DNA of 64,000 bases, from the NCBI GenBank assembly GCA_026004975.1, contig BPKE01000001.1:373788-437787 (forward strand), given 5' to 3'. This DNA is from Gammaproteobacteria bacterium. GTDB lineage: Bacteria; Pseudomonadota; Gammaproteobacteria; HTCC5015. Both the position numbers and the translations under genes were made by a program. This document shows, in pieces, positions 36,013-56,828 of the stretch; position 1 is the stretch's first letter, and every line of letters starts with the position of its first letter. Under the pieces are notes generated by a model. The model saw nothing but the letters and a program-made list of their open reading frames with translations. It was not told where the DNA came from and did not search any database.

Positions 36013-36101
36013 ATGCACCGCCCTCGATGCTCGAGCGCCTCCGGCCGCGGGCATCGCGGGCGGTTGCGGTCGATGGCCTCCATGGCGATGGCGGCAAAGC
36101 T

Positions 36102-36803: not shown

Positions 36804-37218
36804 CTTCCATTCCCGCCGTTGCCGCACAAAGACGCCTCGAGCTCGTCGAGGCGCGCCGAGGGCATGGCTTCCCATGATTCTCCAACATCGCGAGGGCGGC
36901 ATCGACACCGCCCCGATCCGCTTGGGGTTGCGCCGGCCGCATGCCCGTCAACCCGGCGGCCTTCTTCTTGCCTCGCCCAGCGTTTTCAAAGCTCTGCGAA
37001 GCGTTTGTGCGCTTCCAAGGATCCGGCCATTTTTTTCCGATCGGATTCGGCGCCCATACGCCCCCCAGGCGATGCCCCGGGAAGGGGAAAACGGCATCCG
37101 CCCTCAAGCATTGCACGGACCCGGCGCTCGCCCAGGAAGTCACGGCGGCATGCGACCGTCGCCGCTGTCGCTCGAGCGAGCCACGAGGGCCGCTCGGTCG
37201 CCGAGCAACCGACCGGCT

Positions 37219-40200
37219 TCAGAATTTGCCGACGAGGTTGATGAAGGCGCCCTGGCTGTCGTAGTCCAGGTCGGTGAGGTCGTCGGAGAAGTCGGTGAAG
37301 TTGTAGCCGACGCCGAGCTTGACGTGGCGGCCGAGGTGTTTGTAGAGGGCGGTGAGGAAGCCGGCGCGTTCGTCCTGGGCTTGTTCGACGGCGAGGCGGC
37401 GCCCTTCGATGAGCCAGTCCCAGCTGTGCACGAGGTGCCAGTCGACGCGCAGGATGGTGAGGTCGGCGTTGCTGGCGAAGAACTCGGGGTTGCTGCGGTC
37501 CAGGGCGACTTCGCCCAGGCGCCGCGCCCATTTGGCGCCGAGGGTCCAGCGCGCCGTGAGGCGGTAGTTGCCGTCGATGGAGAGGATGCGGCTTTTCTGG
37601 ATGAATTCGCTGCGGGTGCCGGGCAGGCTTTCTTGTTCGGGCGCGGGCAGGTTTTCGAACCAGGTGAGTTTGAACAGCAGATTGAGCCGGTCGTGGGCGA
37701 CGGGCCGGTAGGCGTAGCCGAGGACGGCTTCGGTGAAGTCGCCGTCGTAGAAGGCGCCGCGGTTGGAACGGCTGCGCGCGGCGTTGTACTTGGCCAGCAG
37801 GCGGCCGTCGTCGCCGAGCCGCCATTCGAGGTTGGAACGCCACAGCCGGGTGGTGCGCCGGTCCTGGAGGCTGGCGTCTTCGCGCCATTCGAGGGCGGCG
37901 GCGGCACGCAGCGCATCGCCGCGCCAGCCGGTGGAGAAGCTGTAGGCGGAACGGTCGAGGACCAGGCCGGTGAAGGGGTCTTGGAGTTCGCCGCGTTCCA
38001 CGGCCAGACCCAGGGCGAGGGTCTCGACGGGGTTCCAGTCGAGCCCCCAGGCGTGGGTGAGGCCGCTGGGCTGCTCGCCGAAGGCGTAGCGTTCTTCGCC
38101 GTAGACGCTCAAGGCGTCGCTGTAGCGGCTGCGCAGGCCGACCAGCCCCCGGCCCTGCCGGCCGCCGCTGCGCCCGGCCAGGCGGCTGAAGTCGTCGCGG
38201 TCGGTGTCCACCTGGTAGGCGAAATAGAGTTGGGTGCGGTCGCTGGCGAGGAAGTCGAGGCCCAGGCGGCCGCCGGCGCCGAGGTCGCCGTCGGAGATTT
38301 CGCCGTCGAGCCGCCAGCGGTCGGAAAGCTGGTAGCGGCCCCCGACGCCGATGCGGTCGTTCTCGGCGCGGCCGCCGGCGGTGTCGAGGGTGCTCTGGAG
38401 GAAGCCGTAGCCGGTCCAGCGGTCGCGGCTGTCGTAGGCGACTTCCAGGCCGAGGTCGGTGCGTTCGCCGAGGGCGTCGGCCGGCAGCAGGCTGCCGGCA
38501 CGTTGGTCTTCGCGCCGGTCGCGGCGCAGGGCGGAACCGAGGCGCCAGTGTTCGTCGAGGGTGTAGCGCGCTTCGAGTTCGGCGGCTTCGCTGTCCAGGC
38601 CCTGTTGCTGGCGATGGGCGTCGAAGCGGCCGGCGACGGTCCAGCGCGACCCGATCGGCAGTTCGAGGTCGAGGCCGTGTTGTTCGGTCTCGAGCGGGGC
38701 GAGTTGGCCGGGGGCCGCGAAACCGGCTTCGCGCTGCTGCAGGTAGAGGCGCAGGCGCCCTTCGAAGTCGAAGAGCTCGGAGAACAACCCGGCGGCTTCC
38801 AGGCGCCAGGCGCCGTGGGCCCGGTCGTCGGCGGCGTCGAGGGTCTGGTCGAAGAAGTTGAAACCGCCGTCTTCGGACAGGCGCTGGCTCCAGCCGGGAC
38901 CGCGGCTGCGGGCGCTTTCGAGTTTGACATAGGTCTGGGCGGTCTTGCGCAGCACGAGGTCGACGCCGCCGAGTTCGGCGCGCTCGCCGAAGCGGTCTTC
39001 GTCGGCGGCGGTGAGCCCGAGCTGCAGGTGGTCGCCGAACCAGTGGGCGAGGCGCAGGCCGCGGCTGGTGTCGTCGATCTCTTCGAAGCCGGGGGTGTAT
39101 TCGTAGCGGGCGACGAGGAAGACGGGGTGCCCGCCCAGGCCGTCGGTCTGGACGATGCGCCCGTCGTCGGCGGTGGACGGCAGGGGCTGGTTGAGCAGGA
39201 TGCGGCCCTGGATGTAGTCGATGTCGTAGTCCTGGCCCCAGACGAGTTCGCGGGTGGACAGGACGATGCCGGAGTCCTTGTCGCGCACTTCGATGCGCAG
39301 GCGTTCGGAGCCCTGGGTGATGTCGCGGTTGCGCAGGTAGTAGAGGGAGCCGCCGGTGCCGCGGAATTCGTCGCGGGCGAGGACGGTGCCGGGCTGGGCG
39401 AGGTAGAGTTCGCCGCGGCTGCGCCGTTCGCCCAGTTCGGTGACGGCGTCGCTTTCCAGGTGCAGTTGCGCGCCGTAGAGGACGCGGTCGACCTGGGCGA
39501 GTTCGGTGTCGAGCCAGCGCGCCTTGAAGTTGCCCCACAGGACGTGGTCCTGGTCTTTTTCGGCGCGCAGGTAGAAGCGGCCGGAGGTGGGCGCGTCTTC
39601 GATGAGGACGCTGTCGTCGCCGAAGGTGGGGTAGTGGCGGTCGGGGTCGAGGCGCCGGAACAGGGTGTCGGGGTCTTTCTTGTCGAAGTTGCTGAACAAC
39701 TCGTCGATCGGTTGCTCGCGGGTGTCGGCGCTGGCGGTGACGGTCCAGCCGCCTTCGGTGCGCCCCTTGGTGTAGAAGGCGAGCCGGCCGTCGGCCCAGA
39801 ATTCGCTGTTGTAGTGGGTCGGATCCTGGGTGACGAGGCTGGCCGGGCCGTTGGTTTCGTCGCGACCGAGGACCAGGTCGGCGAGCCCGACCAGGAACCA
39901 GTCGTTTTCGGCCATGTGCAGGTCGCGCAGGTAGAGGCGGCCGTTCCCCCGTTCGTCCAGCACGGCGACTTCGACCGTGTGGTAACCCGGGGGCACGATT
40001 TGTTCGGCGACGAAGCGGCCGTCTTCGCCGACCGGGACGCGCCGGCCCATGACCCAGACGCGGTGCCCCGGCGGCAGGTTGCGGCCGGCGACGGTGACGA
40101 CGCCGCCGCGGACGGGGATCCGGCGCTGGGCGAGGCGGCTCTCACCCCAACCGGCGCGCTCGATCTCGGCCTCGAGCGCCTCGGCGGCGGCCGGGTCGAG

Positions 40201-42351
40201 CACGCGCGAGACCAGCCAGATCGGCTGCGGCTCGGTCTGGTCCCAGCGGCCTTCGGCGTCGTAGACGCGCAGCACGTACTTCAGGGGCTGGACGGGCCCG
40301 GCGAAGGGTTCGAGCGGCGGCGGGGTCCACCATTCGGCCTGGCCGTCGTCGTTTAGCGGCAAAACGGCGAGCGGCTCGGCCTGGAGGCTGTCTTCGGCGT
40401 GGTGGATGCGCACTTCGGCGCGGGCGATGAAGGCGCTGTAGTTGCTGTAGGCGACGAAGCGGATCTTGTTTTCCATGCGCCGCGTGGCCGGGTCGTCCCA
40501 GTCGCTCAGGTAGGGCGGCAGGGCCTGGATGTCGAGCCGCGGCGCGGCGCCCAGGGGGTCGTAGCGCAGTTGCAGATCGGCTTCGGCCAGGGCGCGGTCG
40601 ATGCAGCGCTGTTCGTCGGCGCCGTGGCGGCGGCCGTCGTCGACGGGTTGCCCGTCCACGCTGATGCGGATCGGCTGGAGCAGGAAGGGGCTGACGGGCG
40701 GTTCGTCGACCTGGACGCGCTCGATGACCAGGTTGGGGTCTTCGACGAGTTCGGCCGCTTCTTCGTAGAGGAATTCGAGTTCGACGCGGTTGTCGCGCGG
40801 GTCGACGGTGCCCTCCTCTTCCGCGCCGGCGGCCTCGAAGCGCAGGCGGGCGAAGGGCGAGTCGTCGGCGCGCCGGTACGGCTCGAGGAAGCCGCGCCCT
40901 TCGGTGAGCAGGCGGTCTTCGGGCAGGCCGAGGCGGCGCGCGAGTTCGGCCTTGACGCGCTCGGCGCGCGCCAGGGAGAGCTTGAAGTGGTCGCCGTAGA
41001 GGGCGGCGGCGCGGCGGCTGAGGGCCTCGTTGCTGGTGTGGCCCACGACGTTGATGCGCAGCCCGGGCTTGTCGCGCAGGGTGTCGAGGATGCGCCGCAC
41101 GCTTTCGAAGAAGCCGTTGGGATAGACCGGGTCGCCGGCCTTGAAGAAGACGACGGGTTTTTCGTCCTGGTAGACGGCGGTGACGGTTTCGCTCTGCGCG
41201 GCGCCGGGACAGGGCCGCGGGGTTTCGACGGCTTCGGGGTCGGGGTCGTCGTGCCAGATCTCGATTTCGATGCGGCGGTTCAGGGCGCGGCCCTGGGCGT
41301 CGGCGTTGGAGGCCACCGGCTCGGTCTCGCCCTTGCCGACGGCGGTGATCATGCGGTTGGGCAGGCGCAGCGTCTCGGCGAGTTCGCGGGCGAGGCGCCC
41401 GGCCAGGGCCTTGGAGAGGGTGAGCTTGTCGCCGTAGAGACGGGCGAGTTCGGGCGGCAGGGGCAGGTTGTCGGTGTGGGCGACGACGCGCAGCGACAGG
41501 CCGGGCAGGTCGCGCAGTTCGGCGAGCGCGTCGCGGATGCGGATCAAGTGGCGCTCGTCGAGTTCGACCTGGGTGCCGTCGTAGTGCAGGGGCGGCACGG
41601 CGCCGACGACCTGGATGCGCCGGCGCTGGCCCTGTTTGCGCTTGTACAGGCAGCGCTCGACGCGGCGGCAGACGGGGACCTGGCGCAGGCCGGGGTCTTT
41701 TTCGACGCGCTCCTGGACGCGGCGTTCTTCGATTTCGTCGTACCAGACTTGCACTTCGACGCGCCGGTTGCGGGCGCGCCCGGCCGGGGTGGCGTTGTCG
41801 GCGATCGGTTCGGCGGCGCCGCGGCCTTCGAAGGTGACCGCCTCGGGCGGCAGTCCCAGGGCGCGCTGGAAGAACTCGGCGGCCATGCGCGCCCGCGCCT
41901 CGGACAGGCCGACGTTGTCGCCGTAGAGGGCGCGGCCGCGTGGGCCGAGCGGCTGGTTGTCGGTGTGGCCGATGATGTGCAGGCGCAGGTTGGGCTTGTT
42001 TTCGAGTTCGGCGAGCACGGTGCGCAGGCGCTCGACGACGGTGTCCGGGATGTCGGCGCGGCCGGTGGCGAAACCGATCGGTTCGACGACGTCGGTGAGT
42101 TTGACGGTGCGCGCCTCGCGCTGGAGGGTGGTGCGCAACTCGACGGTGTCCTCGCCGCTCGGCCGGAAGTCGTCCTCGTCGTGCACCCAGAGGGTGAATT
42201 GGAGGTCGGGCAGGAGGCGCTCTCCGGCGGGCGGCGCCTCGGCCCGGCCGAGCACCGGCCCGCTGCAGTCGGCGCGGCCGCAGGCGCCCTGCCCGGCCGC
42301 CGGACCGGCCAGGAGCAGGGTGCAGAGCCAGGCGGCGAGACGGCGCGTCAT
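37219..42351 (-). CDS. 1,710-aa outer-membrane protein: signal peptide, three OmpA_C-like peptidoglycan-binding modules, and a very large C-terminal putative beta-barrel
   Basis: Uninterrupted frame inside track ORF 37219..43764. ATG at 42351 (MTRRLAAWLCTLLLAGPAAG). OmpA-like modules carry HIIGHTDNQPLG...LSEARARMAAEFF...NRRVEVQVW, VVAHTDNLPL...NRRIEIEIW and VVGHTSNEAL...DNRVELEF (about aa 88-527). Residues ~815-1710 show amphipathic-strand-like periodicity and end ...GVGYNFTDFSDDLTDLDYDSQGAFINLVGKF (terminal Phe). Confidence 0.85.
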   Translation of the reverse strand: MTRRLAAWLCTLLLAGPAAGQGACGRADCSGPVLGRAEAPPAGERLLPDLQFTLWVHDEDDFRPSGEDTVELRTTLQREARTVKLTDVVEPIGFATGRADIPDTVVERLRTVLAELENKPNLRLHIIGHTDNQPLGPRGRALYGDNVGLSEARARMAAEFFQRALGLPPEAVTFEGRGAAEPIADNATPAGRARNRRVEVQVWYDEIEERRVQERVEKDPGLRQVPVCRRVERCLYKRKQGQRRRIQVVGAVPPLHYDGTQVELDERHLIRIRDALAELRDLPGLSLRVVAHTDNLPLPPELARLYGDKLTLSKALAGRLARELAETLRLPNRMITAVGKGETEPVASNADAQGRALNRRIEIEIWHDDPDPEAVETPRPCPGAAQSETVTAVYQDEKPVVFFKAGDPVYPNGFFESVRRILDTLRDKPGLRINVVGHTSNEALSRRAAALYGDHFKLSLARAERVKAELARRLGLPEDRLLTEGRGFLEPYRRADDSPFARLRFEAAGAEEEGTVDPRDNRVELEFLYEEAAELVEDPNLVIERVQVDEPPVSPFLLQPIRISVDGQPVDDGRRHGADEQRCIDRALAEADLQLRYDPLGAAPRLDIQALPPYLSDWDDPATRRMENKIRFVAYSNYSAFIARAEVRIHHAEDSLQAEPLAVLPLNDDGQAEWWTPPPLEPFAGPVQPLKYVLRVYDAEGRWDQTEPQPIWLVSRVLDPAAAEALEAEIERAGWGESRLAQRRIPVRGGVVTVAGRNLPPGHRVWVMGRRVPVGEDGRFVAEQIVPPGYHTVEVAVLDERGNGRLYLRDLHMAENDWFLVGLADLVLGRDETNGPASLVTQDPTHYNSEFWADGRLAFYTKGRTEGGWTVTASADTREQPIDELFSNFDKKDPDTLFRRLDPDRHYPTFGDDSVLIEDAPTSGRFYLRAEKDQDHVLWGNFKARWLDTELAQVDRVLYGAQLHLESDAVTELGERRSRGELYLAQPGTVLARDEFRGTGGSLYYLRNRDITQGSERLRIEVRDKDSGIVLSTRELVWGQDYDIDYIQGRILLNQPLPSTADDGRIVQTDGLGGHPVFLVARYEYTPGFEEIDDTSRGLRLAHWFGDHLQLGLTAADEDRFGERAELGGVDLVLRKTAQTYVKLESARSRGPGWSQRLSEDGGFNFFDQTLDAADDRAHGAWRLEAAGLFSELFDFEGRLRLYLQQREAGFAAPGQLAPLETEQHGLDLELPIGSRWTVAGRFDAHRQQQGLDSEAAELEARYTLDEHWRLGSALRRDRREDQRAGSLLPADALGERTDLGLEVAYDSRDRWTGYGFLQSTLDTAGGRAENDRIGVGGRYQLSDRWRLDGEISDGDLGAGGRLGLDFLASDRTQLYFAYQVDTDRDDFSRLAGRSGGRQGRGLVGLRSRYSDALSVYGEERYAFGEQPSGLTHAWGLDWNPVETLALGLAVERGELQDPFTGLVLDRSAYSFSTGWRGDALRAAAALEWREDASLQDRRTTRLWRSNLEWRLGDDGRLLAKYNAARSRSNRGAFYDGDFTEAVLGYAYRPVAHDRLNLLFKLTWFENLPAPEQESLPGTRSEFIQKSRILSIDGNYRLTARWTLGAKWARRLGEVALDRSNPEFFASNADLTILRVDWHLVHSWDWLIEGRRLAVEQAQDERAGFLTALYKHLGRHVKLGVGYNFTDFSDDLTDLDYDSQGAFINLVGKF

Positions 42352-45300
42352 TGCAAGGGGCGCCCCCGGCGCCAGTAGGTTTCGGTTTCGACGAGCAGGC
42401 GGTAGCAGCAGCCTTCGGCACGCCAGCGCGCTTCGATCTCGGCGACGACGGCGGCCAGGCGGGCGGCGGCCAGGGCGCCGGATTCGAGGTCGCCGAGGTA
42501 GGCGACGCGCAGCACGCTGGGCGCTTCGCGCAGGCGTTCGAACAGGGTGTCGAGTTCGCCGGCCCAGTGCGGGCGCAGGGCGACGCCGCCGGGCTCGAAG
42601 GCGGCGTCGGCGAGATCGAGCCGCACGACGCGGTGGACGGCGGCGCCGAAGGCGACCTGGCCGAATTTGCCGCGGGTCAGGCGCAACACGCGCGGGTTTT
42701 CGCTGGTGACGCGGTAGCCGCTGGGCAGGGTGCGCGGGTCGAGTTCGATGATGAAGTGGCTGCCGCGGTCGAGGTTCGGCACCTGGGCGCAGGCGATGTG
42801 GAAGCGGCCGTGCGCGTCGGTGGTGACGAGCAGGCCGCGGGCGGTGGCGAGCCGAACGCCGGCGAGCCCGGGTTCGCCCGGATCGGGCTCGCCGTCCAGG
42901 TCGCGGTCGTCGAAGACTTTGCCGACGATGTCGGCGCAGTCGAAGGTGGGGTCGGGCACGACGCGCACGGTGGCGCTGGCCTCGCCGGAGACCGGCTCGG
43001 CCAGACCGGCGATGAAGGCCTGGGCGAGGTTGACGTATTCGCCCTCGCCGACGCCGGCGCCGACGACCAGCAGCAGTTGGATGCGGCTGCGCGCGCCGGG
43101 CGCCAGGGCGAAGGGCGGAAAGTCGAGCCGGCGACCGTCGCCGAGCGGTTCGAAGGGCAGGCCGTCGCGGCGCGCCGAGCCGGGCAGGTATTTGAAGCCC
43201 GGCGGCATGGTGTCGCGCACGATCAGGCCGCTGATGTTGAAGTCCTGCGGGTTGCTCACCTCGATGGTGTAGGGCACGGCCTCGCCGCGCACGACGTTTT
43301 TCAGGGGCGTGGTCTTGCTGATGGTGACCAGGCCGGCGGGCACGTCGTCGAGCGGGATATGGTGGTTGAAGGGGCCGCGCTCGCCGTCGCCGTAACGGAC
43401 GGTGAGGTGGTAGCGGGTGCCGGGGCCGGGCGGCACGTCGCTGGCGGGCGCTTCGGGCTGGGGCTGCACTTCGCACTCGGCGGTGGCGGGCACGGCGTCG
43501 GCACCGCAGTTTTCGGGATCGAGGGTGGTCGGCTCGGGCGGGATGACGACCGAGACGTTTTCGCGCCAGCCGCCGGCGCCGTCCGGGGTTTCGACGAGCA
43601 GGCGGTAGACGCCGCCCACCGGGCAGGCGGGGTCGGCGCCGGGACGCAGGTCGAAGCGGTAGAAGGCTTCGCCGTCGCTGATCTGGCCCTGCTGGCTGCC
43701 CAGGTGCGGCGGGGTGTCGAAGCAGGCCTCGGGCAGCGGCCCGCCGTCCTGGCGACGCAGCCACAGCCGCGCGCCGGCCGGGAAACGCTCGCGGGTGACG
43801 GAGTTGTAGAGCCGGCCGTGCGGATCCAGCGGCAGGTTTTCATCGAGGACGTTGCGCCCGGCTTCGGCCTGGATACCGGCGATGCGCATCAGGCCGGCCT
43901 CGCCGACGGCCGGGGCGCTGCGGCCGAGGGCGCGGTTGGAGCCGGCCGGCCAGCCGGGGCTGCCTTCGGGGACGGCGAAGGTGACGGTGTAGGGGCCGCC
44001 GGGCGCCAGCCCGACGATGGCGAAGCGGCCGTCCTCGCTGGTGGTGAAGCGGTCGATGGGGGCGTCGGCCGGGCCCGGCGCGGGCCGGTCGAGGTAGACG
44101 GCCAGCGGCCAGCCGCCGAAGACCTGCTCGCCCTCGTCGTGGCGGTCGTCGTGGTCCGGGTCGTGCCAGATGCGGCCGCGCAGGGTGACGGTGCCGGGGG
44201 CGCCGCCGACGTCGACGCGGGCGCTGTCGGTGGGGCAGCCGCTCATGCAGGCGTTCCAGCGCACTTCGGCGGTGTTGACGATGGGCGTGCCCTCGGCGAG
44301 GGTGTCGTCGAGGGTGACGCGGAAACTGAATTCGAAGTCCGCACCCGGCTGCAGGGCGCCGTAGGTGGCCCCGTAGTCGGCGCTGAGGGTGGCGCCGGTG
44401 ACGCTCACGCCCCGGGCGAAACCGTCGAGCAAGGCGCTGCCGGCGACCAGCTCGGTGCCGGCCGGCAGGGTGTCGAGCACGCGCAAGCCGCTGATCGGCA
44501 CGGCGCCGGGGTTGGCGACCCGGATGCGGTATTCGAGCCGGCCGCCGGGTTCGGCGGTGCCGCCGCCGACCACCAGGACTTCCTTGCTGATGGTCGGACG
44601 GCCGTCGCCGCCGACCACGAAGCGGGTCGGGCCGTCGCCGTTTTCGTCGTTGCCGTCGGCGTCGCTGGGCTCCTCGGGCTGCACGACCGAGCGCAGCCGC
44701 GCCTGGTTCTCGACGACGGTGCCCGCGGCGGTGCCCGGCGCCACCCGGGCGTCGACGGTGACCTGGACGCCGCCGCCGGCCGGCAGCTCGAAGCGCAACC
44801 CGCCCTGGGCGGGGTCAAGCGGCGGGCCGGCGCCGTCGGGCTGGACGACGCCGTCGAGGGTGGTGGTCCCGGGCAGGTAGGCGAGCTCGGCGGGCAGCGC
44901 GTCGAGCAGGGTGACTTCGCCGGCGTCGAGGTTGCCGCGGTTGGTGGCGACGAGGGTGTAGCGGACGCTGTCGCCGGCGTCGATGACGCCGTCGCCGTCG
45001 AGGTCGTCGACCAGGGCGACGGTCTTGAGCAGATCGAGGTTGACGCCGCGACCGACCACGTCCTGGGTGGGGTCGGCGGGCAAGGGAGTGTCGGGATCGT
45101 CGCTGAACACGGGCGGGAACGGCAGCGGCGGCGCGGCCGGGTCGGCCTGCTCGATGCCGCCGCGCAGCACGCCCTGGTTGGAGAGCACGGTGCCGTTGGC
45201 CAGGCCCTCGTCGACGCGCACGTCGAAGGTGACGACGGCGACGTTGCCGGCGGCCGGATCGGGGTCGGCGGCCAGCCGCCCGGCGCCGGCGCCCGGGGAC

Positions 45301-48300
45301 TGGATGAGCAGGCCCGCTTCCAGCGGCGCGCCGCCATCGGCCGGGTCGGGCACGGGCGCGCCGTTGAGGGTGGTGCTGCCGGCCACGTAGCGGGTGTGGG
45401 CCGGCACGGTGTCGGTGAGCACCACGCCGACGGCGTCGGCGTCGCCGACGTTCTTGACGGTGAGGGTGTAACGCAAGCGCTCGCCGCCGAGCAGCACGCC
45501 GGGGTCGCCGTCGAGGTCGGCGGAGGTCTTCTCGAAGACCAGTTCCGGTTCGGCGCCGATGAGGGTGACGGTGGGGTCGGCGGGCTCGGGGGTGAGCGGG
45601 TCGTCGCTGGGCCGCGGACTCATGGCCGGGGCGTCGATTTCGGCCTGGTTGGCGACGACGAGGCCGGCCGGCAGCGGCGCGGCCAGCGTCAGTTCGAAGA
45701 CCAGTTCGATGCGGTCGGCGCCGCCCCCGGCCGCGTCGATCGGGATGTCGTCGATGGCGATGAGGCCGTTGCCGGCCGCGCCGCCGGCGGGGTCGGTGGC
45801 GTCGTTCCAGGCCGGGTCGGGCGGCACGACCCACACCAGGCTGCCGGGCGCGAAGGCCGCCGGTGTGTTCAGGGCGTCGATCTGGTCGCGCAGTTGCAGG
45901 ACCGTGCCGAGGCGGCCGGTGTTGGTGATTTCCAGGGTGTAGCGCAGGGTGTCGCCGGGCCGCGCGGTCAGCCCCGGGTCGGCGCCGCTGCTGGCGTTGA
46001 CCACGCGCTTGGTGAAGCTGAGCACGGGGGCGCGGGTCTCGAGCGGCAGATCGTGCGCCCAGTCGTCGTCGGCGACGGCGACGGTGCCGGAGCCGGCCGG
46101 TTGCTGGTAGACGACGGCGCCCGGCGGGACGCCGGCGCTGGTGTCCTCGCCGTACCAGCGCTCGACCAGGGCGCGGTTGACGACGGCCAGGCCGTCGCCG
46201 GTGTCCTCGACCAGGGCGGCCTCGTAGACGACGCGCAGGACCTCGCCGGGCTCGATGCGCGCCGCCGCCGAGCGCAGCTCGATGGTGAAGGCGCCGCTCG
46301 CCGGGTCGTAGGCGAGGTCGTAGTCGTCGGGGCCGGCTTCGCTCAGGCTGCGCCCGCCGACTTCGATGGAGACGATCTGCGGCGGATCGGCGCCGCGCAT
46401 TTCGGGCGGCAGGATGTCGAGCAGGCGCGCCTGCCAGATGGTGGTGGTGTTCGGCGCGTCGTTGGCGACTTCCAGGGCGAAGCGCTCGGGCGTGCCCAGA
46501 TCGATGAAGCCGTCGGCGCCGGGGGCGGCTGCGGGGCCGAGCTCGATCTTGCTGAGCAGGGGTTGCGGGACGACGACGGTGAAGCTGGCCTCGTCGCTGC
46601 CGCCGAAGGTGTTGGCCGGCTGGCCGGGGGCGTCGGCGAAGCGGTACTCGGCCCGGTTGGTGACGACGGTGCCGGCCGGTCCGGCCGCCGGCTCGACGCG
46701 CACGCTGAGCAGGATCTCGGCCTGGCTGCCGGCGGGCAGCTGTTGCAGGCGCAGGCGCACCTGGTTGCTGCCGGGGGCGGTGAGGTCGGTGAGGCCGACG
46801 GCGCCGTTGCCGGGGCCGAAGGCGGCGCCGAGGTAGGTCAGGCCGGGCGGCAGGTCGTCGTCGACTTCGACCTCGTAGAGGGTGGTGACGGCCGGGGTGT
46901 CGGGGAAAGCGCAGCCGGTACTCGATGGTCTGGCCGTGGGTGGCCTCGGCCGGGCCGTCCTTGATCATGTTCATGGGGGTCTGGGCGGTAACGGTCACGG
47001 CGACCGGGCCGACCGGACCGTAGAGCCGCGCCGGATCGGTGGGCCGCGAGGCGTAGCGGTCCACTTGCAGGCGGTTGCTGAAGATGGCGCCGGGGCCGAC
47101 CTCGGGGTCGACGTTGAGGGCGTAGACGATGACCAGGCAGTTGCCGGGGGCCTGGTGATCGAGGGCGTCGCCGGGCGCCAGGGTCCAGATCAGTTCGCCG
47201 CCGGCGAAGGCGAAGTTCGGGCTGTTTTCGTCGTAGTCGGGGGTGCGGTCGACGCCGCCGAGGGTGACGCTGACGACGTCCGGGTCGGGCGGCGCGCCGT
47301 CGGCCCCGTCGAGCTCCGGCGGCAGGGTGTCGCGCAGCACGAGACCGTAGGCCGGGGCGGTGCCGCTGTTGCACACCTGCAGGGTGAATTCGAGCCGCTG
47401 GCCCGCGCTGACCAGGGCCGGGCCGCCGTCGCTGCGCTGCTTGTCGAGGTCGGCCGGGCCGATGAAGGGTTGCTGGACGGTGATCGTGGCGGCGGCGTCG
47501 GCGCCGGCGGCGGGCGTGCCGTCGTCGCGCAGGTGGTCGACGCGCGCCAGGTTGGCCAGGGCGGTGCTGCTGGCGCCGGCGGCGGGGTAAGGCACGGCGA
47601 CGGCGTCGTCGCGCACCCGCGCCCGGTAGCGGATGACGAAACGGTCGTTGGCCGGGTCGTTGTCGGCGGCGTTGCCGACGTCGCCGAGGGTCCAGGTGAG
47701 GGTTCCGGTGGCGCCGGCGGCCGGGGTGGCGGCGGCGGCGATGGGGGCGTGGGCGAAGGGCGCGACCGCCTCGTAGGGCGCGCTGTCGTCGCCGTTGACG
47801 CTGAGCGTGGCGACGAATTCGAGGCCGGGCGGCAGGGTGTCTTGGACCACCAGCCCGCGCACCAGCCCTTCCTGGAGACGGATTTCGAGGCGGAAATCGA
47901 CGGTGTCGCCGACGCGCAGGTCGTCCGGTGTACCGGGGTATTCGTCGGCCTCGCGGGTTTTGTCCAGGGCGGTGAGCTCGGGCACGGCGGCGGCGGCCTG
48001 GACGGGGCCGGCGCAATAATCGTCGGGGGCGGTGACGGCGGGACAGCCGGCGCCGTCGCGCTCGAGATCGGAGGGGCCGTCGAGCGAGCTCCAGTCGGCG
48101 CTCAGACTGTTGTCGAGCACCGCGCCGGGCTGGGCGTCGTCGGCCACCCGCAGGCGGTAGACGAGCACGAACACGCCGCCGGCGGGGATGTCGAGGCTGT
48201 CGTCGCCGTTGCCGCGCCCCCAGACGAGCGGCCCGGCCGGGGCGCCGGCGGGGACCGGGTTGAAGCCGGCGAGCGGCGCGCCGTCGAGGGTGGCCGAGAC

Positions 48301-51300
48301 GGTGGCGTCGAAGCGCAGGGCCGGCGGCAGGGTGTCGACGAGGTCGACGTCGAAGGCGGTGGCGGTGCCGGTGTTCTCGACGGTGAGGGTGTATTCAACG
48401 AGGTCGCCGGCGTCGGGCCCGGCCGCCGGCGGGGTGAGGGTCTTGGTGAGCTGCAGTTGCGGCTCGACCACGGTGAGGACGACGGGGGGCGCGGTGACGG
48501 GCGCGGCTGCGCCGGCATGGCTCACCTCGGCGGCGTTCTGCAGCAGGTCACCGGCGTCGACGTCCAGGGCGTTGTCGATGCGCACGGTGTAGACGACGCG
48601 CAGGTAGGGGTCGATGGCGCCGCCGCCGGCGTCGTTCTCGCTCTGGGTGACGACGGTGCCGAAGTTCCATTCGATGAGGCCGGTGGCCTCGTCGGCGGGT
48701 TCGACGACGGCGCCGGCCAGGGCGGCGGTGAGCGCGGCGCTGTCGCTGCAGTCCACGGGAATGCCGGCGACGCTGACCAGACCGGCGCACTCGTAGAGGA
48801 TGTCGGCGCCGGCCTCGTGTTCGAGGACCAGGCCGGGGCCGCCGGCGGCGAGGTCGTCGCGCAGGCGCAGATCGAGCGCGCGGCCTTCGGGCAGGCCGAT
48901 CTCGAGGGCGAAGCGCTTGCGCTGGCCCACGGCCGCCGGCAGGGCGGGATCGAGGTCGCTCTTGGCGAGCGTCGGGGCGGGCACATCGAGGGCGGCGGTG
49001 ACCCCGGTTTCGTAGTCGTTGATCCCGCCGTCCGGCGGGATCTGACCGTTGCGCAGGCCGTCGGCGGCGCCGTCGGCGCCGATCGTGCCGCCGCCGTTGA
49101 GGGCGGTGGCGGCGCTGGGCAGGGAGGTCCAGGCGGCGTACAGATCGTGCGGGATGCTCTGCTCGGGGTTGACGGTGCCGAGCACGCGCAGGCGGTAGCT
49201 GAAGTCGAAGGCGCCGCCGACGGGCACGGCGTCGCCGGGAGCGAAGGTGAAGCTCGGGTTGCCGGCCCCGTCGACGGTGACGGTCGGCGCCGGCGTGCCG
49301 GGGGCGGTGACGACGCTGCCCGGCACGTATTCGAGCAGGCCGGCGGGCAGGCCGTCGTAGACGACGAGGTTGTAGGCGTCGGCGGTGCCGGTGTTCTCGG
49401 CCCGGACCTCGACGGTGATCTCGTCTCCGGCGTCGATCTGGTTGTCGGGGGTGACGAGGTTGGGCGGCGGGTCGCCGTCGAAGGGGATGGGGTCACCGAA
49501 CCAGGTCTGCAGGGTGATCTGCGGCTCGCGCAGGGTGAGCCGCGCTTCGTTGATGTCGATGGTGACGGTGCTGCCGGAGGCGTCGACGTAGCGGACGTTC
49601 ACGGCGGTGGACGCGCCGCCGTTGGCGAGCACCAGGCCGTCGTCGATGCCGGCGAGGTTCTCGACCCGGGCGATGAAGCGCGCCTGCAGGGTGTACTGGC
49701 CGACGCCGCCGCTGCCGAGCAGGCGCTGGTCGCCGGCGGTGGACAGATCCCATTCGACGGCGTCGGCGTCGCACTGCACGGCGGGGAAGGTGCCGCCCGG
49801 GTCGAAGCCCGGATCCTGGGCCGGCGGGTCGTAGAGAGGCAGCTCGACGGGGAAGGCTTCGATGCAGCGCAGGCCGGCCGGCAGCTCGTCGCGCAGCCGG
49901 AAGTCGCGCAGCTCGGAGACGGGGATGCCGACCTCGAGCTGGATTTCGACTTCTTCGCCGACAACGGCGGTTTCGTCCACGCAGGGGGTGGGCGTGCAGG
50001 CGCCCGTCACCAGGCCGGCGGCGCGGCGCGCGGTGGCGGTGAACGTCTTGGAACCGGGGGTGACGGTGACGTCGAGCACGCGGATGCCGGCGCGCGCCTC
50101 GGGCAGCACGTATTCGCGCGCGCCGGTGAGGCCGCCGCTGGCGCCGGCGGGCGCACTCTGGTTGCCGCTGGCGCCGGCCAGGCTGTCGTAGCGGCCGGCG
50201 GCGGCGTTGCCGTCGCCGGTGGGGCCGCCGGCGACGTTGTCCAGCACCTGGGTGGGGGTGACGTCGCTGTCCAGCCGCGCGTAGTAGTACAGCTCGACGC
50301 TGGCGCCGGGGTCGAGGCGCGCCAGGGCCGGCGAGTGGTCGCCTTCGAAGGTGAGCACGGCGGGAACGCCGTCGGCCATGACGGTGTTGCTGACGCTGCC
50401 CTCCCCGTCCGGGTCGGCGGCGTCGACCAAACCGTCGCCGTCGTTGTCGATGCCGTCGGTGGCGAGGTTTTCGGGCAGGAGCTGGTCGGAGGGGTCGGTC
50501 GCGTCCTCGATGCGCAGGTCGAAAGCGGGGGCGCGCGGCAGGCCGCCGGCGTCCGCCTCGTTGCTCAGGGTCAGGCGGAAGATGTAGCGGTCGTCGGCGT
50601 CGCCCTCGGCACGCTGCGGCCAGGTGACGAAGGGCTGGCAGGCCGGGCCGACGGCCAGCGGATCGGCGGCGGCCGACAGCGATTCGTTGCACACCGCCTT
50701 GACCAGGCCGACGGCCGGCTCGGCGATGCGCAGGCGGCGTTCGCGGTCGGCGGCGGTCGGGTAGCCGGGGCTGTTTTCGTCGAAGGTGATGCGGTTGCCG
50801 CTGCCGGTGAAGTAGACGTCGAAACGGACGTTCACCTCGTCGAAGCGCTCGGCGGCGTGGACGTTGGGCGCGGCCGAAGCGTTGACCGGGTCGTTCAGGC
50901 TGCGGGTGCTGAACTCGGCGACGAAGCGTTGCTCGGCGCGGTCGTCGGCCGGCGCGGTGATGGGGTCGAGGCGCCAGGCCAAGGCGGTTTCCTGCAGGTC
51001 GGTCGGTGCGGCGGGGTTCTGCACGGCGACGGTCACGCCGGGGGAGCTCGCGGAGAAGTCGATGCCGGCCGGCAGCACGCCCTGGCCGTCGAGGGGATCG
51101 GGCAGGTTGGGCGGATCGGCGGCGGGATCGGCCTCGACCGGCGGCGGGTTGTTGCCGCGCGCGCCCTCGTAGACGCGGGCGTTGCGGATCTCGATGTTGC
51201 CGAAACCGGGGGTGGCGAAACCGAACCAACCGGCGGTGAGCCGGTAACGGCATTCCTCGCCGATCTGGACGATCGGATCGGGGGGTGCGCCGGCCTCGCT

Positions 51301-54300
51301 GCAGGAGACGATCTCCTTGCGCAGGTTGAAGCCGATGATGCGCACCAGGACGTTGTCCTTGCTGTAGTACGGCCAGCCGGCCGCGCCGCGGTCGGGCACG
51401 GGGTTGCCGTCGGCGCCGACGGCGCGGCCGAGGACGTCGGCCCGGAAGGTGAGGTCGCCGGAGCTGCCCAGCGGCAGGGTGCGCTGGATGGTGAAGGTGA
51501 AGGTGTTGCTGGCGCCGGGCGGCAAGGGCTCGTCGAGCCGGCAGAGGAAGCTGCGCGAATCGCCGGGGTCGTACTCGGGCGGCAGGATGCCGCCGGGGTT
51601 GATCGGGTCTTCGCCCAGCTCCGGCGGCGGCGCGGCCGGGTTGCAGCCGGCCGGCAGGGCGCCGGCGTCGATGCCGTTGCCGACGGTGACGTAGAGGTCG
51701 TAGTTGGCGGCGTCGTGACCGCCGCGGTTGGTGAGCACGACGTCGAAGGTGAGCGTCGCCGCGGGGTCGCTGAGGATGTAGAAAAGATCCGGGTCGGCCG
51801 GGTTGATGTCGACGTCCAGGTCTTCGGGATCGACGGGCGCGACGAGCTCGGACGGCAGGTTGACGCTGTCGTCGTCGTCGAAGACGGTGCCGCAGGTGTT
51901 CTCGAAGCGCAGACTGACGCGGTTGGTGGCATCGGCCGGATAGGCGGGGTCGGTGCCGTCGGCCGGGGTTTCCTCGCGCACCTCGGGCTGGTTCAGCGCG
52001 TCGAAGGGGCGCACGCGCACCAGTTGCAGGGTCAGGGTCAGGCGGTCGCCGTGGCGCAACAGATTCGATTGCACGGCGGTGCCGCTGGTGCTGGAGGTGA
52101 AATCGAAGACCGGTTGCGCCGGGTTGCTGTCATCCAGGACGTAGCCGTCGACGAGGCCGGGGTAGTTGCCGAAAGCGGGCTGGACGTCGAGCCCGATCGG
52201 CGCGGTCAGGTCGAGTTCGTAGTCGGCCGGCAGGGTGTCGATGAGCCGCAGGTTGCGCACCGTGCCGCCGGAGTTGTTGAGCACGGTGAGGGTGAGCACG
52301 CCGCGGGTGCCGAGGGGCTGGGCGGGATCGAGGCCGGTCAAGGTCTGCTGGACGATCACGCCGTTGGGATCGACGCCCGCGCTGAGCGCGGCGCCGTCGG
52401 CGTCGTCGGCGCCGACCACGCCCGGGGTGGCGGCATCGAGCCCGCCGGCCGGGGGGCTGGCCTCGCAACCCCATTCGATGGCGGCGTCGTTCTGTTCGTT
52501 GCTGCACAGGTTGCCGACCCGGCCCAGCACGTAGAGGTCGGTGCGGCCGCCGGCGGGCAGGTCGACGAAGGCGCCCGGTTCGTCGTTGGCGGGACTGCCG
52601 AAAGGATCGTCCACGTCGAGGGCGGCGCTGTAAGCGACGCAGGGCGCGAGCAGGCCGCCGCCGCTTTCCATGGCCGCCGCCTGGGCTTCGGCGGCCCCTT
52701 GGTCGGGGCAGATGTAGAGCAGTTGCAGGTTGGTGCCGGGGGTGAGGGTGTCGCGCAGCAGCAGGTCTTCGAGGTCGGCCGAATCGGGGGCGCCGGCCTC
52801 GTCGATGCGCACCCGCCAGATGAGGATGTCGTCGGTGCCGCCGTAGACGGGATCGGCGGCCTGGGCCTCGCCTTGCCGCGCCGAGTAATTGCGCCCCCGC
52901 TTGTCGACCTGCGGCTGGGGCTGGCGCAGCGGCACCTGGAAGGTCTCCTGCGTCGGCGGCAACCCGGGGTCACCGCAGAACAGGTCGAAGTCGGCGCGGG
53001 CGGTGATCTGGCGCGAGGCGCCGGCCAGGGCCTCGGGGTCGGCGCCGGCGGCGCGCACCCGGAAGCGGATGCGCAGGCCGGTGGGCAGGTTGCCGGCGAG
53101 GTCGGAGTAGAGCCGGGCGAGCTCGGGGACGCTGCCGGCGTCCCAGGACAGGGCCGTCGCGCCGTCGGCGTTCGGGTCGGCGGCAAGGACGTAGGCGGCG
53201 CCGCCCTCGGGCACGATTTCGGTCTGGCCGTCGTAGACCAGGCCGGAACCGGTCAGGTCTTCGTCGACGACCACGTCGTAGAGGTCCGAGGCGCCGTCGT
53301 TGCGCACCTCCAGCTCGACCCAGCCGGAACGGCACAACTCGCAGAAACTCTCGGCCTGGTGTTCCAGGGCGAGGTCGATGAGCGGGAAGACGACGTTCGG
53401 CCCGTTCTCGCTGAACAGCACGCTGCCGGCGGTGCAGGCACGGCGGATCTCGGTCTGGTTCGGGTTGCCGACGTTGCAACCGCCGCCTTGCGGCAGGCCG
53501 ATGGCGACGATGACCTCGGTCGAACCGCCGGGCGGCAGGTCCGGCAGGCCGCTCCAGACCATCAGCGGATCGCCGAGCGCGCCCGGGTCGGCCGCCGGGG
53601 TGGAGCCCGCGCGGTACGGCAGGAAGCCGGGCGGCACGCGGTTGGTGAACACCCAGTTCTCGAGCGGCGCGACGCCGGTGTTGGTGATGCGCACCCGCCA
53701 GCGGAACACGCCTTCGTTGCCGGGCAAGCCGGGGTCGACGTCGGCGAAGGCCTGCGGCTCGCCGAGGATCACGTTGGGCGGCAGGAATTCGACGTCGAGC
53801 TGGGCGGGCGGCGTGGTGCCGACGACCGTGATGCTGCGCTGGCGGTCTTCGTCGTCGTCCCAGCCGTTGCCGATGTCCGGCGAGGTGTGGTTGCTGTCCC
53901 AGTAGACCGTCGCGGTCAGTTCGCGGCCCGGCGCGCCGGGCAGGAGGCTGATGGGGAAGCGCACCGTCGACAGGTCGACCAGGTCGTCGCCGTCGTTGGG
54001 GGTGACGTGGATTTCGAGCTGCCCCGGCCCGGGATTGATCTGGGGGGCGAGCGCGGCCAGCGGGCCGCTCAGGGTGACGTCGGTCGCCGCGGCCGGCAAC
54101 TGGTAATCGCTGCTGGTGAACAGCAGCCGGACGTTGTCGGCGACCAGCGGCCGCGGGCTCGGCCCGAGGATGTCGAACACCGCCTCGGTCTGGCCGCAGA
54201 CGCCGGCGTCGTTGGTCTCCTCGATGCGCCCGGTCAGGTTGATCTCGCCGCGCACCAGGGCGAAGGGCAACCCCTGGGTGTAACTGTCGTCCCCGGTGCA

Positions 54301-56828
54301 GGCGCTCGGGTTGTTGGCGACGGTCAGGGTCACGCGCTCGATCCAGCCGCCGAGATTGACGTCGTCGACCGGCTGGCCGTTGGCGTCGAGGTTGCCTTCG
54401 GGGGCGGTGGCGCGGTAGCGAACCAGAAGGCGCGTGCCGGCCATGGCGTTGCCGAGCACGCCGACCAGCGAGGAGAGGTCGATGTCGAAACCGCCGCCCG
54501 GCAAGCGGTTGACTTCGCCGGGGCCGGAACCGAAGGGGAGGAAGGTTTCAGGCAGACCGGGACCATTGGGGTCGACGACCTCGATGCTCACCCCGCTCTG
54601 CTCGCCGTCGTCGGGCTGGCCGTTGCCGTTGGCATCGACGAAGGCCAACTGCAGCGGCGGACCAGGCAGCCCGCCGGCGCCGCTGCCGAGCTCGGCGGCG
54701 AAGCGGCTGCCGGTCCAGACGCCCGCATACGGGTCCGGGAACTGGTAGTCGGCGAGGAAGGTGAGGCGCTCGCCCTCGTTCGGCTCGTCGCCGGCGACCA
54801 GGTTGGTGTCGGGGCGGCCGATCTCGAAGGGCCCTTCCGCGGTGCCCGGGGCGAACATGAAGTTCTGCGCCGGGCTGTCGACCGGGCTTTCGTTGAGGGT
54901 GGTGACCGCGGTGGAACCGAAGGTGAAGCCGCAGGCGGGGTATTCGAGGATCGCGCCGTTGAAGACCTGCACCGGCAGGACCGGCGGCGTGGCCGGACAG
55001 GCGTAGGTGAAATCGATGACGAGGGACGGCAGCGGATCGGAAAGATCCTGCTGGTCGCCGCGCCACTCGATGTAGGCCCCGCCCGGCACGGGGACGTTGC
55101 TGTCGGCGTCGTCGTAGCCGACGCCGTTGATGTACACCCGTGTGCCGGCCGGGATGGCCGGAATGACGCCGGGGCCGACCTCGTTCGGCAGATTGTCGAT
55201 CACCACCCAGTCGTTGTCGTTGTCGATCGCGTCGGCCGGCGGCAAGGCGGCCACGTTCTGGCCGGTCAAGCCGAGCTCGTACTGGCCGGGCTGGCCGAAG
55301 TTCGAGCTGGGGCTGTCGACCTGCTTGAGGACGGTCAACTCGGGGGCGTTGTTGACGGCGTAGGCCGATTGGCGCTGCGGCGGGCTGAAAGGCGTGCCGC
55401 AGACGTTTTCGTAATACGGCGACCAGGTCAGGAAGGCGCCGCCGGTGGGCCCGGCGCAGTCGGGCACCGAGACCTCGAAGGACAAGTCGACGACCCCGCC
55501 GGAGTCGAGCACCTCGTCGCCCGAGGCTTCGACGCCGTCCGGACCGAGCCAGACGAAGGTGGCGGTGGGCGCGTCCCAGCGCCATTGCGGCCCGACGTTG
55601 GCGATCGTCAGACCGGCCAGGCCGGTGACGGTCATGCGGATGTTGCGCGCCGGCCCGCCGTTGCCGCCCAGCCCCGGGTTGGCGATCGGCACGCTGACGG
55701 TCGTCGGCGTGCCGTAGTCGATGGCGATGTTGGGCGCGGTGTAATCGAGCAGCGGATCCTGCAGATCGAGCACCACCGAGTCGAAGGCGGCACTGGTGTT
55801 GCCGATGCGGTCGGCCACCGATACGTCGTTGCGCAGGTCGGGGCAGCTGCCGCCCATGGCGATCACCGCCACTTCGGCCTCGACGACGATGTCGGCGCGC
55901 GCGCCCGGCGCGAGATAGGCGATGGTGTATTGGCCGCTGCCGGACGGCACCGGCAAGGGGGCTGCCGGGCTGGGCGTTGGCTTGCGGCTGCAGGCTCAAG
56001 GTCGCCGCGTCGAAATGCGGACCGGGCGTGTCCTGGACAAGCACCGCGAAGGTGCCGCCCGAGCCGCTGTTGTAGACGCTGACCAGCCACCGGGCCGTTT
56101 CCCCCGTGGGCATAAGCGCCGTTGGGGTCGGCCGGGTTCGGCACGGCGCTCTTGGTGACGATCAGATCGCCGCGGCGCACGGCGACGGTCTGCTGGCCGG
56201 AGACCGCCGCGGCGCTGCCCGGATCACCGGGGACGCTGTTGAAGGTCGCCGTGTAGTCGAGGACGGCGGCGCCGGCCGGCGCGAAGGGCACGGCGTCGCG
56301 CGTCGTCAGGCCGAACTCGAAGCGCAGGCGGCATGGCTCGGCACCGCCGCCCTGCCCCGGCAGCGACGTGCCCGGCGGCAGGACGAAGCTCACGGTGGAT
56401 CCGCTCTGGGTGGCGGTGACGCCGGCCGGGGCGGTGCAGTTGCCGAGCCCCGGGTCGCCGCCGCTCGCGGTAACCGTCACCGGGAAGGGGCTGACCGGCA
56501 GGCGCAGGCCGGCGGGCAGGGTCAAGCTCACCGCGAGATCGTAGGCGATCTCGTCCACGGCCGGGTCGGGCTGGCCGGCGGCGGTGTTGCTGAGCGTGAA
56601 ACGGAAGGTGTCGCCGCTGCTGTTGGTGACCTCGGCCGCACCGTTCCAGGTGCCGCCCGAGTCCATGTACTCGTCGCCGCTGCCCGGCAGGCCGTCGGGG
56701 TCACGGTCCGGGTCGGCCGGGACGAATTCGAAGTCCGAGAAGGCGACTTGCGGCTGTCCCCAGGCCAGCGCCGATGCGGCCAGCGCGAGCAGGGCGAAAC
56801 ACGCACGGCGGCGCCCCGGGAACGCCAT
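42348..56828 (-). pseudogene. giant (~4,800-codon) secreted DUF11-type repeat surface protein or adhesin; three single-base frame breaks, as sequenced
   Basis: Sec signal MAFPGRRRACFALLALAASALAWG at 56828. The gene is four collinear segments: 56828 to ~56103 (ORF 55863..56828), to ~55959 (ORF 54548..56113), to ~46903 (ORF 44815..55956), and to 42348 (ORF 42348..46760). Dozens of modules look like GDLVEYTLTVENTGTATAFDVDLVDTLPPAL. SdrD-B-like modules occur near the C-terminus. The stop overlaps the next gene's ATG. Confidence 0.85.

Follow-up and report, generated by a model that had tools for sequence, protein, structure and literature searches.

Two adjacent giant genes on the minus strand

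A 64,000-nucleotide stretch of DNA from a gammaproteobacterium (GenBank assembly GCA_026004975.1, contig BPKE01000001.1, positions 373,788 to 437,787 of the forward strand; hereafter, the window) has a G+C content of ~71% and carries two very large adjacent genes on its minus strand. The upstream gene encodes a fibrillar adhesin, and the downstream gene encodes a 1710-amino-acid (aa) protein in which OmpA-like modules precede a predicted giant outer membrane β-barrel. Because this barrel is always found adjacent to or fused with a giant adhesin, it is probably the adhesin's export channel and anchor. The features of the two genes, in window coordinates, are as follows.

42348..56828 (−): partner gene, encoding a ~4800-aa CLIPPER/DUF11 and SdrD_B fibrillar adhesin with its own signal peptide; at least three frame changes
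42351..43340 (−): conserved adhesin tail, last 330 aa, consisting of a CLIPPER domain, a CnaB/SdrD_B-like domain, and a ~90-aa β-α-β-α-β domain
37219..42351 (−): whole gene for the 1710-aa protein with OmpA modules and predicted giant barrel; stop codon at 37219-37221, start ATG within an ATGA overlap with the upstream stop
42289..42351 (−): signal peptide, aa 1-~21, MTRRLAAWLCTLLLAGPAAGQ; read from the sequence, with homologs aligning from residue 1
42091..42288 (−): conserved N-terminal segment, aa ~22-87, with the motif LPDxxFxxWxxDxxxF
41707..42090 (−): OmpA-like module 1, aa ~88-215; D131, R153, and N195-R196-R197 intact and >96% conserved in homologs
41227..41616 (−): OmpA-like module 2, aa ~246-375; D294 kept, Arg position occupied by Leu and variable in the family
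40771..41181 (−): OmpA-like module 3, aa ~391-527; Asp position occupied by Ser and variable in the family, R462 kept
39910..40770 (−): middle region, aa 528-814, modeled by AlphaFold2 as a helix and two β-sandwich domains; forms, with the barrel, the conserved core of the family
37222..39909 (−): predicted giant β-barrel region, aa 815-1710, with ~38-40 wall strands (AlphaFold2, Foldseek, amphipathicity, covariation, and a weak Porin_4 match)
39070..39390 (−): insert in the barrel region, aa 988-1094, holding the invariant DYDIDYIQGRILL; predicted from strand covariation to lie outside the wall, with a low predicted local distance difference test score (pLDDT)
37222..37251 (−): C-terminal strand motif G-x-F-[IV]-N-[LIV]-[IV]-G-K-hydrophobic, resembling a β-signal

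The barrel protein thus consists, in order, of a signal peptide, three OmpA-like modules, a ~290-aa β-sandwich region, and ~900 aa of amphipathic strands that end in ...AFINLVGKF. An initial annotation of the locus, made from the nucleotide sequence, had proposed these coordinates and this anatomy, and both were borne out by the open reading frame, Pfam, and AlphaFold2. As called mechanically, the open reading frame reaches 43764; the extra 471 upstream codons are Arg-rich and overlap the preceding gene out of frame. Translation from the ATG at 42351 begins with a signal-peptide-like sequence (MTRRLAAWLCTLLLAGPAAG), and homologs of the barrel protein align from residue 1.

The adhesin begins with a signal peptide of its own (MAFPGRRRACFALLALAASALAWG) and contains CLIPPER/DUF11, DUF7507, SdrD_B, and RrgB-type isopeptide domains according to Pfam and NCBIfam. 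The same two databases returned no autotransporter, two-partner secretion (TPS), RTX, type IX secretion system (T9SS) C-terminal domain, or sortase signal in it. Its reading frame breaks at ~56100, ~55960, and 46888-46904, giving at least four frame segments, and the gene in the window is either a pseudogene or affected by indel errors in the assembly. In contrast, the barrel gene itself is intact. On the plus strand, GC skew is +0.13 to +0.18 over window positions 38000-56000, which coincides exactly with the two giant minus-strand genes.

The C-terminal region is predicted to form a single giant barrel

We modeled aa 530-1710 with AlphaFold2, using 76 homologs. The model has a mean pLDDT of 72 and a predicted template modeling score (pTM) of 0.52. 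It places β-sandwich domains at aa ~577-810, followed at aa 819-1710 by ~45 strands of 7-17 residues each, joined by short loops; the last 34 strands (aa 1075-1710) form an unbroken run. Most strands show dyad amphipathicity, with one mildly hydrophobic and one polar face. A stretch in the middle region, VRGGVVTVAG...ERGNG at aa 747-803, had been described as Ig/CarboxypepD_reg-like. The first half of that description is in keeping with the β-sandwich that AlphaFold2 models there, whereas Pfam gave no CarboxypepD_reg match to the stretch.

When the barrel model was compared with the PDB using Foldseek, it matched outer membrane barrels exclusively, with a probability of 1.0. The matches included TonB-dependent receptors, LptD, SlpA, FimD, SprA, and MtrB, but template modeling scores (TM-scores) were only 0.13-0.37. 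Because the probability is maximal yet the TM-scores are low, the region appears to be barrel-type locally, with no solved barrel resembling the model globally. Profile evidence is sparse: Pfam placed a marginal Porin_4 match at aa 1250-1353 (27.7 bits, cut-off 27) and found a DUF748 match below threshold (14 bits, cut-off 50). The region is also rich in charged residues (10.5% Arg and 9.8% Asp).

Judged from sequence and model, the protein appears to have the general attributes of a barrel inserted by the β-barrel assembly machinery (BAM), namely a signal peptide, amphipathic antiparallel strands, and a hydrophobic C-terminal residue. The initial annotation had read the terminal Phe as the recognition signature. 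Phe is the last residue of our protein but of only 15 of the 77 sequences compared (the query and 76 homologs), so it does not serve as a family signature; the last residue is nevertheless hydrophobic in all 77 (Met in 22, Leu in 22, Phe in 15, Ile in 9, Tyr in 7, and Trp in 2).

We then examined strand pairing by mean-field direct-coupling analysis (DCA) of 334 family sequences (effective number of sequences [Neff] ~158) over aa 815-1710, with gappy columns masked. Couplings were summed over antiparallel registers for all predicted strand pairs under nine alphabet/pseudocount settings. Depending on the setting, 25-31 of the 44 adjacent strand pairs lay above the 95th percentile of the 946 non-adjacent pairs. 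Since adjacent strands covary, a meander topology is supported. The first strand (819-832) and the last (1699-1709) ranked between 2 and 6 among the non-adjacent pairs in nine of nine settings, with a constant register. In every setting the first strand was the best partner of the last, and there was no competing closure partner.

The pair formed by strands 978-987 and 1095-1105 ranked 1-3 among non-adjacent pairs. Because these flanking strands covary, residues 988-1094 are predicted to be an insert outside the wall, which by strand parity would sit on the extracellular or lumenal side. The pairing of the first strand with the last points to a single closed barrel, and with the insert left out of the count this barrel would have ~38-40 strands. 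This evidence for closure is statistical and modest, but consistent. Collectively, the AlphaFold2, Foldseek, amphipathicity, and covariation results agree with the initial reading of the ~900-aa C-terminus as a very large transmembrane β-barrel, which remains a prediction from sequence and model.

A near-invariant loop, FRRLDPDxYYPTFGDDS..EDAPTSGK (aa 877-925, window positions 39574-39723, minus strand), lies between early strands and is modeled with very low confidence. Its strong conservation suggests a lumenal or partner-contacting element.

The barrel family is widespread and paired with giant adhesins

The architecture had been called unusual, but our searches placed it in a large and conserved family. 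The middle region and barrel together have at least 4949 relatives (E ≤ 1e-5, in a collection clustered at 90% identity). Across aa 530-1710, the best 120 of these show 47-60% identity, and the only names they carry are "OmpA family protein" and "flagellar motor protein MotB". The barrel alone retrieved 3334 clusters at 50% identity, 924 of them with E ≤ 1e-30. In the representatives listed, which are 850-6889 aa long, the barrel is invariably the most C-terminal part.

Carriers were found in at least 579 species from several phyla when one genome per species was scanned. They include Gammaproteobacteria (Microbulbifer, Thiohalomonas, and Cellvibrionaceae) and Betaproteobacteria (Sideroxydans, Thiobacillus, and Nitrosomonadales), as well as Alphaproteobacteria, Desulfuromonadales and relatives of Geobacter, Thermodesulfobacteriota, Nitrospirota, Gemmatimonadota, and Acidobacteriota. 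Some carriers can be cultured, among them Microbulbifer, Neptuniibacter marinus, and Thiohalomonas denitrificans.

Neither Pfam nor NCBIfam has a model that covers the barrel. Searches of the whole protein against NCBIfam, and by sequence and profile against the PDB, gave matches confined to the OmpA-like part and none on the barrel or middle region. Our literature searches found no description of the barrel family; a lead from the DUF11 and Geobacter literature (PMC10787695) was set aside, as it concerns archaeal proteins. The initial annotation had allowed that an already described family might share this exact architecture, but we found none, the databases offering only the OmpA and MotB names given above. 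The barrel family therefore appears to be undescribed.

The association with the adhesin is strict. In 79 of 82 loci, which span several phyla, the barrel gene comes just after the end of a homolog of the C-terminal 1500 aa of the adhesin. The remaining three loci have no upstream DNA, and hence all testable loci (79 of 79) are paired. In Microbulbifer sediminum (NZ_JAJSAP010000001.1, loci L009 and L010), two copies of the adhesin and barrel genes lie ~16 kb apart on one contig, as if the entire two-gene unit had been duplicated in tandem.

The most conserved part of the adhesin is its last ~210 aa, with a column identity of 0.65-0.82. AlphaFold2 modeled the last 330 aa confidently (pLDDT of 91.5). 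The Foldseek results for this tail model were dominated by its two Ig-like domains, and its CLIPPER domain had a TM-score of 0.75 to 9ifr. The last ~90 aa (42351-42620, minus strand) form a confidently modeled β-α-β-α-β fold that ends in the conserved motif Y.L.IETE.FWRRG.P. This terminal domain matched nothing in Pfam and nothing in a profile search of the PDB; hhalign aligned it to the start of OmpA module 3 with a probability of only 3.3%.

In some relatives, the two proteins are naturally fused. Approximately 30 of the 150 listed representatives are 2000-6900 aa long with the barrel at the extreme C-terminus. We mapped 19 long representatives by blastp, and every one is a single chain consisting of the adhesin tail (with or without the stalk), zero to three OmpA modules, the middle region, and the barrel. 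In four of the 19 (P0125, P0138, P0148, and P0168), the N-terminus additionally matches the adhesin head, with the same head motif following a signal peptide. The N-terminal segment of the barrel protein, marked by LPDxxFxxWxxDxxxF, comes straight after the adhesin tail in the fused relatives. At the one junction that we read, in P0130, the tail runs directly into this segment with no internal signal peptide, so that P0130 is a genuine fusion rather than a frameshift artifact. The two fused genes whose surroundings we inspected stand alone, with unrelated neighbors.

The OmpA-like modules are variable accessories

Pfam recognized the OmpA-like part as three stretches of PF00691 with a total E value of 3.7e-30 (104.6 bits against a curated cut-off of 27.2), and PDB sequence matches of OmpA-like type span aa 70-370. 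We take the Asp of GHTD and the Arg of LSxxRA to be the diaminopimelate-binding residues, after the structures of Acinetobacter baumannii OmpA and Pal. Conservation at these positions was compared across 113 sequences (the query and 112 full-length homologs). In module 1, the Asp (D131) is present in 110 and the Arg (R153) in 109 of the sequences, and the NRR motif is kept. The Arg position of module 2, a Leu in the query, is occupied by Val in 30 sequences, Arg in 30, Glu in 26, and Leu in 17. The Asp position of module 3, a Ser in the query, is occupied by Ser in 31 sequences, Asp in 22, Thr in 13, and Gly in 13. Thus, the residues for which the initial annotation had suggested a check are intact in module 1, whereas module 2 has exchanged its Arg and module 3 its Asp. 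Because the Asp/Arg pair is complete there only, module 1 alone of the three looks, from its sequence, fully competent for peptidoglycan binding.

The number of OmpA modules varies from zero to three across the family. One representative without any OmpA module (P0150) nevertheless follows CLIPPER genes, and other such members do likewise. Because OmpA-less members still follow CLIPPER genes, we conclude that the middle region and barrel are the conserved core of the family and the adhesin its obligatory partner, while the OmpA modules are a variable accessory, an optional brace. This does not fit the earlier description of the protein as an inverted, triplicated, and enlarged OmpA, and the barrel is itself unrelated to the 8-strand barrel of OmpA (no PF01389 match).

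Proposed function and alternative explanations

We propose that the barrel protein is the outer membrane partner of the upstream adhesin, serving as both its translocator and its anchor, and that the two genes form a surface-display module similar to a split autotransporter. We estimate the probability of this reading at roughly 0.6. In the fused relatives, a stalk placed outside the cell and OmpA modules placed in the periplasm belong to one chain; such a chain must traverse the outer membrane, for which the co-encoded barrel is the sole candidate. It is for this reason that we read the barrel gene as encoding both translocator and anchor. The coexistence of fused and split forms parallels type V secretion, with its fused autotransporters and split two-partner systems.

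In the proposed mechanism, Sec would export both proteins, each by its own signal peptide. The C-terminal ~900 aa of the barrel protein would form a single closed ~38-40-strand barrel in the outer membrane. The OmpA-like modules would remain in the periplasm, where at least module 1 could bind peptidoglycan and brace the barrel against load. The conserved C-terminal tail of the adhesin would dock on the middle region or the barrel, and its ~4500-aa stalk of Ig-like domains would thread the wide lumen and stay held there. A lumen of this width might let domains pass already folded, with disulfides formed in the periplasm; an energy source for the passage is presumed. Disulfides have been reported in 58% of intramolecular isopeptide domains from Pseudomonadota (PMC12617251). 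Secretion and the outer membrane go unmentioned in that paper, which characterizes the CLIPPER/DUF11 domain.

Several points weigh against this proposal. All members of the family are known from sequence and prediction alone. Barrel closure rests on covariation, with an Neff of ~158, and on secondary structure, while confidence in the model is moderate and its TM-scores to known barrels are low, as given above. Modules 2 and 3 each lack one key peptidoglycan-binding residue. The frame changes in the adhesin gene may mean that the module is non-functional in the window, unless they are indel errors. Passage of the adhesin through the lumen is something we infer, and export by another route would be compatible with the data. 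Furthermore, no energy source or chaperone is encoded near the barrel gene.

The last two points bear on the alternative that the barrel is an anchor only, a peptidoglycan-braced platform that holds the tail of an adhesin crossing the membrane by another route, such as type II secretion or a pathway yet to be recognized. A conserved tail and strict pairing are as compatible with docking as with translocation, the OmpA modules point to a load-bearing role, and the lack of a nearby energy source is readily accommodated. However, a barrel of ~40 strands is unnecessary for anchoring, the two fused genes inspected have no secretion genes nearby, and in the fused relatives the adhesin lies N-terminal to periplasmic OmpA modules and the barrel, which leaves the co-encoded barrel as the sole candidate for the crossing. 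We regard an anchor without export function as unlikely. Much less probable, in our view, is a SlpA/OmpM-like protein that works independently of the adhesin, as a large porin or envelope tether, and staples the outer membrane to the wall, in which case co-expression of the CLIPPER protein would merely reinforce the envelope, or the CLIPPER protein would itself be a periplasmic or outer membrane-associated structural component. The layout of a wall-binding N-terminus with a large C-terminal barrel matches that of SlpA and OmpM, SlpA gives the highest query-normalized TM-scores (0.17-0.20), and the weak Porin_4 match points the same way. Yet many members without any OmpA module keep their CLIPPER partner, and the fusions and the synteny of all testable loci argue for a direct physical partnership.

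A different objection is that the C-terminal region might form, in place of one closed transmembrane barrel, a pair of smaller barrels, an open sheet, or a soluble β-rich fold. The pTM of 0.52, the low TM-scores to all solved barrels, and the abundance of charged residues would be in keeping with such a fold. On the other hand, all top Foldseek matches are outer membrane barrels, the strands are dyad-amphipathic, the protein has a signal peptide, and both the hydrophobic C-terminal residue and the terminal strand motif are conserved; the covariation of the first and last strands, robust in all nine settings, finds no competing closure partner. We consider a fold other than a single barrel improbable.

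Returning to the translocator and anchor, the initial suggestion that the lumen could house another polypeptide is plausible and receives strong indirect support from the pairing and fusion with a giant adhesin, although the MtrB-type sheath offered as its model finds no support (see below). We see in this family a strong candidate for a machine of a new type that both exports and anchors adhesins. In its most far-reaching form, the proposal would be that a single-chain, self-sufficient barrel of ~40 strands, larger than any yet known (SprA has 36), constitutes an unrecognized export and anchoring system that translocates and retains giant, pre-folded CLIPPER adhesins stabilized by isopeptide bonds or disulfides, and that both a fused and a split version of it occur in Proteobacteria, Desulfobacterota-type lineages, Nitrospirota, Acidobacteriota, and Gemmatimonadota. 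We put this extended version forward tentatively, as possible rather than probable.

The family offers a concrete answer to the question of how Gram-negative bacteria export and hold CLIPPER/DUF11 adhesins of several thousand residues, in the form of a dedicated giant barrel braced on peptidoglycan. If correct, this would be a new architecture among outer membrane secretion systems and would set a new upper size for single-chain β-barrels, and hence for assembly by BAM. It would also explain the display of giant adhesins in environmental bacteria such as sulfur oxidizers, iron oxidizers, relatives of Geobacter, and marine polysaccharide degraders. OmpA-bearing members are ~1300-1750 aa long, and bulk predictions in the AlphaFold database are limited to 1280 residues (bioRxiv 10.64898/2026.03.07.710327). 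Because most OmpA-bearing members exceed this limit, barrel surveys may have missed the family.

Comparison with known outer membrane systems

In its predicted function the barrel protein is most like a split autotransporter, in layout most like SlpA/OmpM or intimin, and in size most like SprA. With type V secretion (types Va, Vb, and Ve, the last represented by intimin) it shares a Sec-dependent, self-contained organization in which an outer membrane barrel is dedicated to one large adhesin passenger. The fused form, with the passenger N-terminal and the barrel C-terminal, corresponds to type Va, and the split form of adjacent genes corresponds to type Vb; intimin likewise has a periplasmic peptidoglycan-binding domain. 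The window carries the two-gene form, while relatives such as P0125 and P0168 are single polypeptides as in type Va. Despite these parallels, Pfam detected no sequence or profile similarity to the autotransporter β-domain, Omp85/TpsB, POTRA, or TPS domains. Specifically, the 12-strand β-domain of classical autotransporters (PF03797) is absent, with ~38-40 strands predicted in its place, and for two-partner secretion there was no Bac_surface_Ag or POTRA match in the barrel protein and no TPS domain in the adhesin. Type V barrels have 12-16 strands, many fewer than predicted here. In addition, OmpA modules and β-sandwich domains stand between passenger and barrel, unlike in type V, and the passenger is made of CLIPPER/CnaB Ig-like domains rather than a β-helix.

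According to a 2026 preprint (bioRxiv 10.64898/2026.03.07.710327), no known barrel is larger than the 36-strand SprA. This type IX translocon, also named Sov, is likewise a very large single-chain barrel, is thought to pass folded proteins, and is among the Foldseek matches, but with TM-scores of only 0.15-0.19. We found no SprA match in Pfam or NCBIfam, no T9SS C-terminal domain on the cargo in Pfam or NCBIfam, and no PorV, PorLM, or other T9SS genes nearby. Unlike those of SprA, the hosts of the present family are Proteobacteria and other non-Bacteroidota phyla.

A wall-binding N-terminus combined with a large C-terminal barrel has precedents in SlpA/OmpM and in intimin. SlpA of Deinococcus and OmpM of Negativicutes resemble our protein in having a large barrel, of 30 strands in SlpA, C-terminal to one or more periplasmic wall-binding domains, and they gave the best query-normalized TM-scores. 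They differ in carrying SLH domains and a coiled coil in place of OmpA-like modules, in forming trimers, and in being abundant tethers or porins without a dedicated adhesin partner; no sequence similarity between them and our protein was found. Chaperone-usher systems (FimD/PapC) likewise export folded Ig-like fiber subunits through a barrel with inserted or plug domains, and the FimD translocation domain gave the highest target-normalized TM-score (0.37). However, there was no PF00577 match and no periplasmic chaperone gene among the neighbors (PilS/PilR, a xylanase, and NadE), and usher cargo consists of polymerizing pilins passing a 24-strand barrel, whereas the present cargo is one giant polypeptide and the barrel has ~40 predicted strands.

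The protein shares the PF00691 domain with classical OmpA/OprF, including the canonical Asp and Arg in module 1. In classical OmpA, an 8-strand barrel is N-terminal and a single OmpA_C domain is C-terminal, whereas here the order is reversed, the modules number three, and the unrelated barrel is about five times larger; PF01389 (OmpA_membrane) gave no match at E ≤ 0.1. MtrB is also a large barrel proposed to enclose another protein and was matched by Foldseek (6r2q_B, TM-score of 0.15-0.20). The sheath analogy drawn in the initial annotation nonetheless found no support, since there was no PF11854 (MtrB/PioB) match and there were no multiheme cytochrome genes in the neighborhood, and the partner of our barrel is an adhesin. 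LptD was also considered, and Pfam did not place the protein in that family. The features that do unite the family are a C-terminal barrel of ~900 aa that follows a β-sandwich middle region, and a CLIPPER adhesin that is adjacent or fused.

Genomic neighborhood

Downstream of the barrel gene lies a 1.2-kb spacer (36013-37218) of lower G+C content (~0.67). It contains an open reading frame (36102-36908, minus strand) with no Pfam match, and the spacer is not conserved downstream of the barrel gene in two other loci that we inspected. Genes for a PilS-like sensor kinase (33032-34678, plus strand) and the sigma-54-type regulator PilR (34555-36012, plus strand) are convergent with the barrel gene, facing its 3′ end, and have no evident link to the two-gene module. 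An ordinary glutamine-dependent NAD synthetase, NadE, with CN_hydrolase and NAD_synthase domains, is encoded at 31068-32690 (minus strand). On the other side of the module, the gene at 57788-59242 (minus strand) encodes a secreted GH11 xylanase with two CBM60 xylan-binding modules and Gly/Ser linkers between them, which suggests that the host is a plant-polysaccharide-degrading, high-GC gammaproteobacterium.

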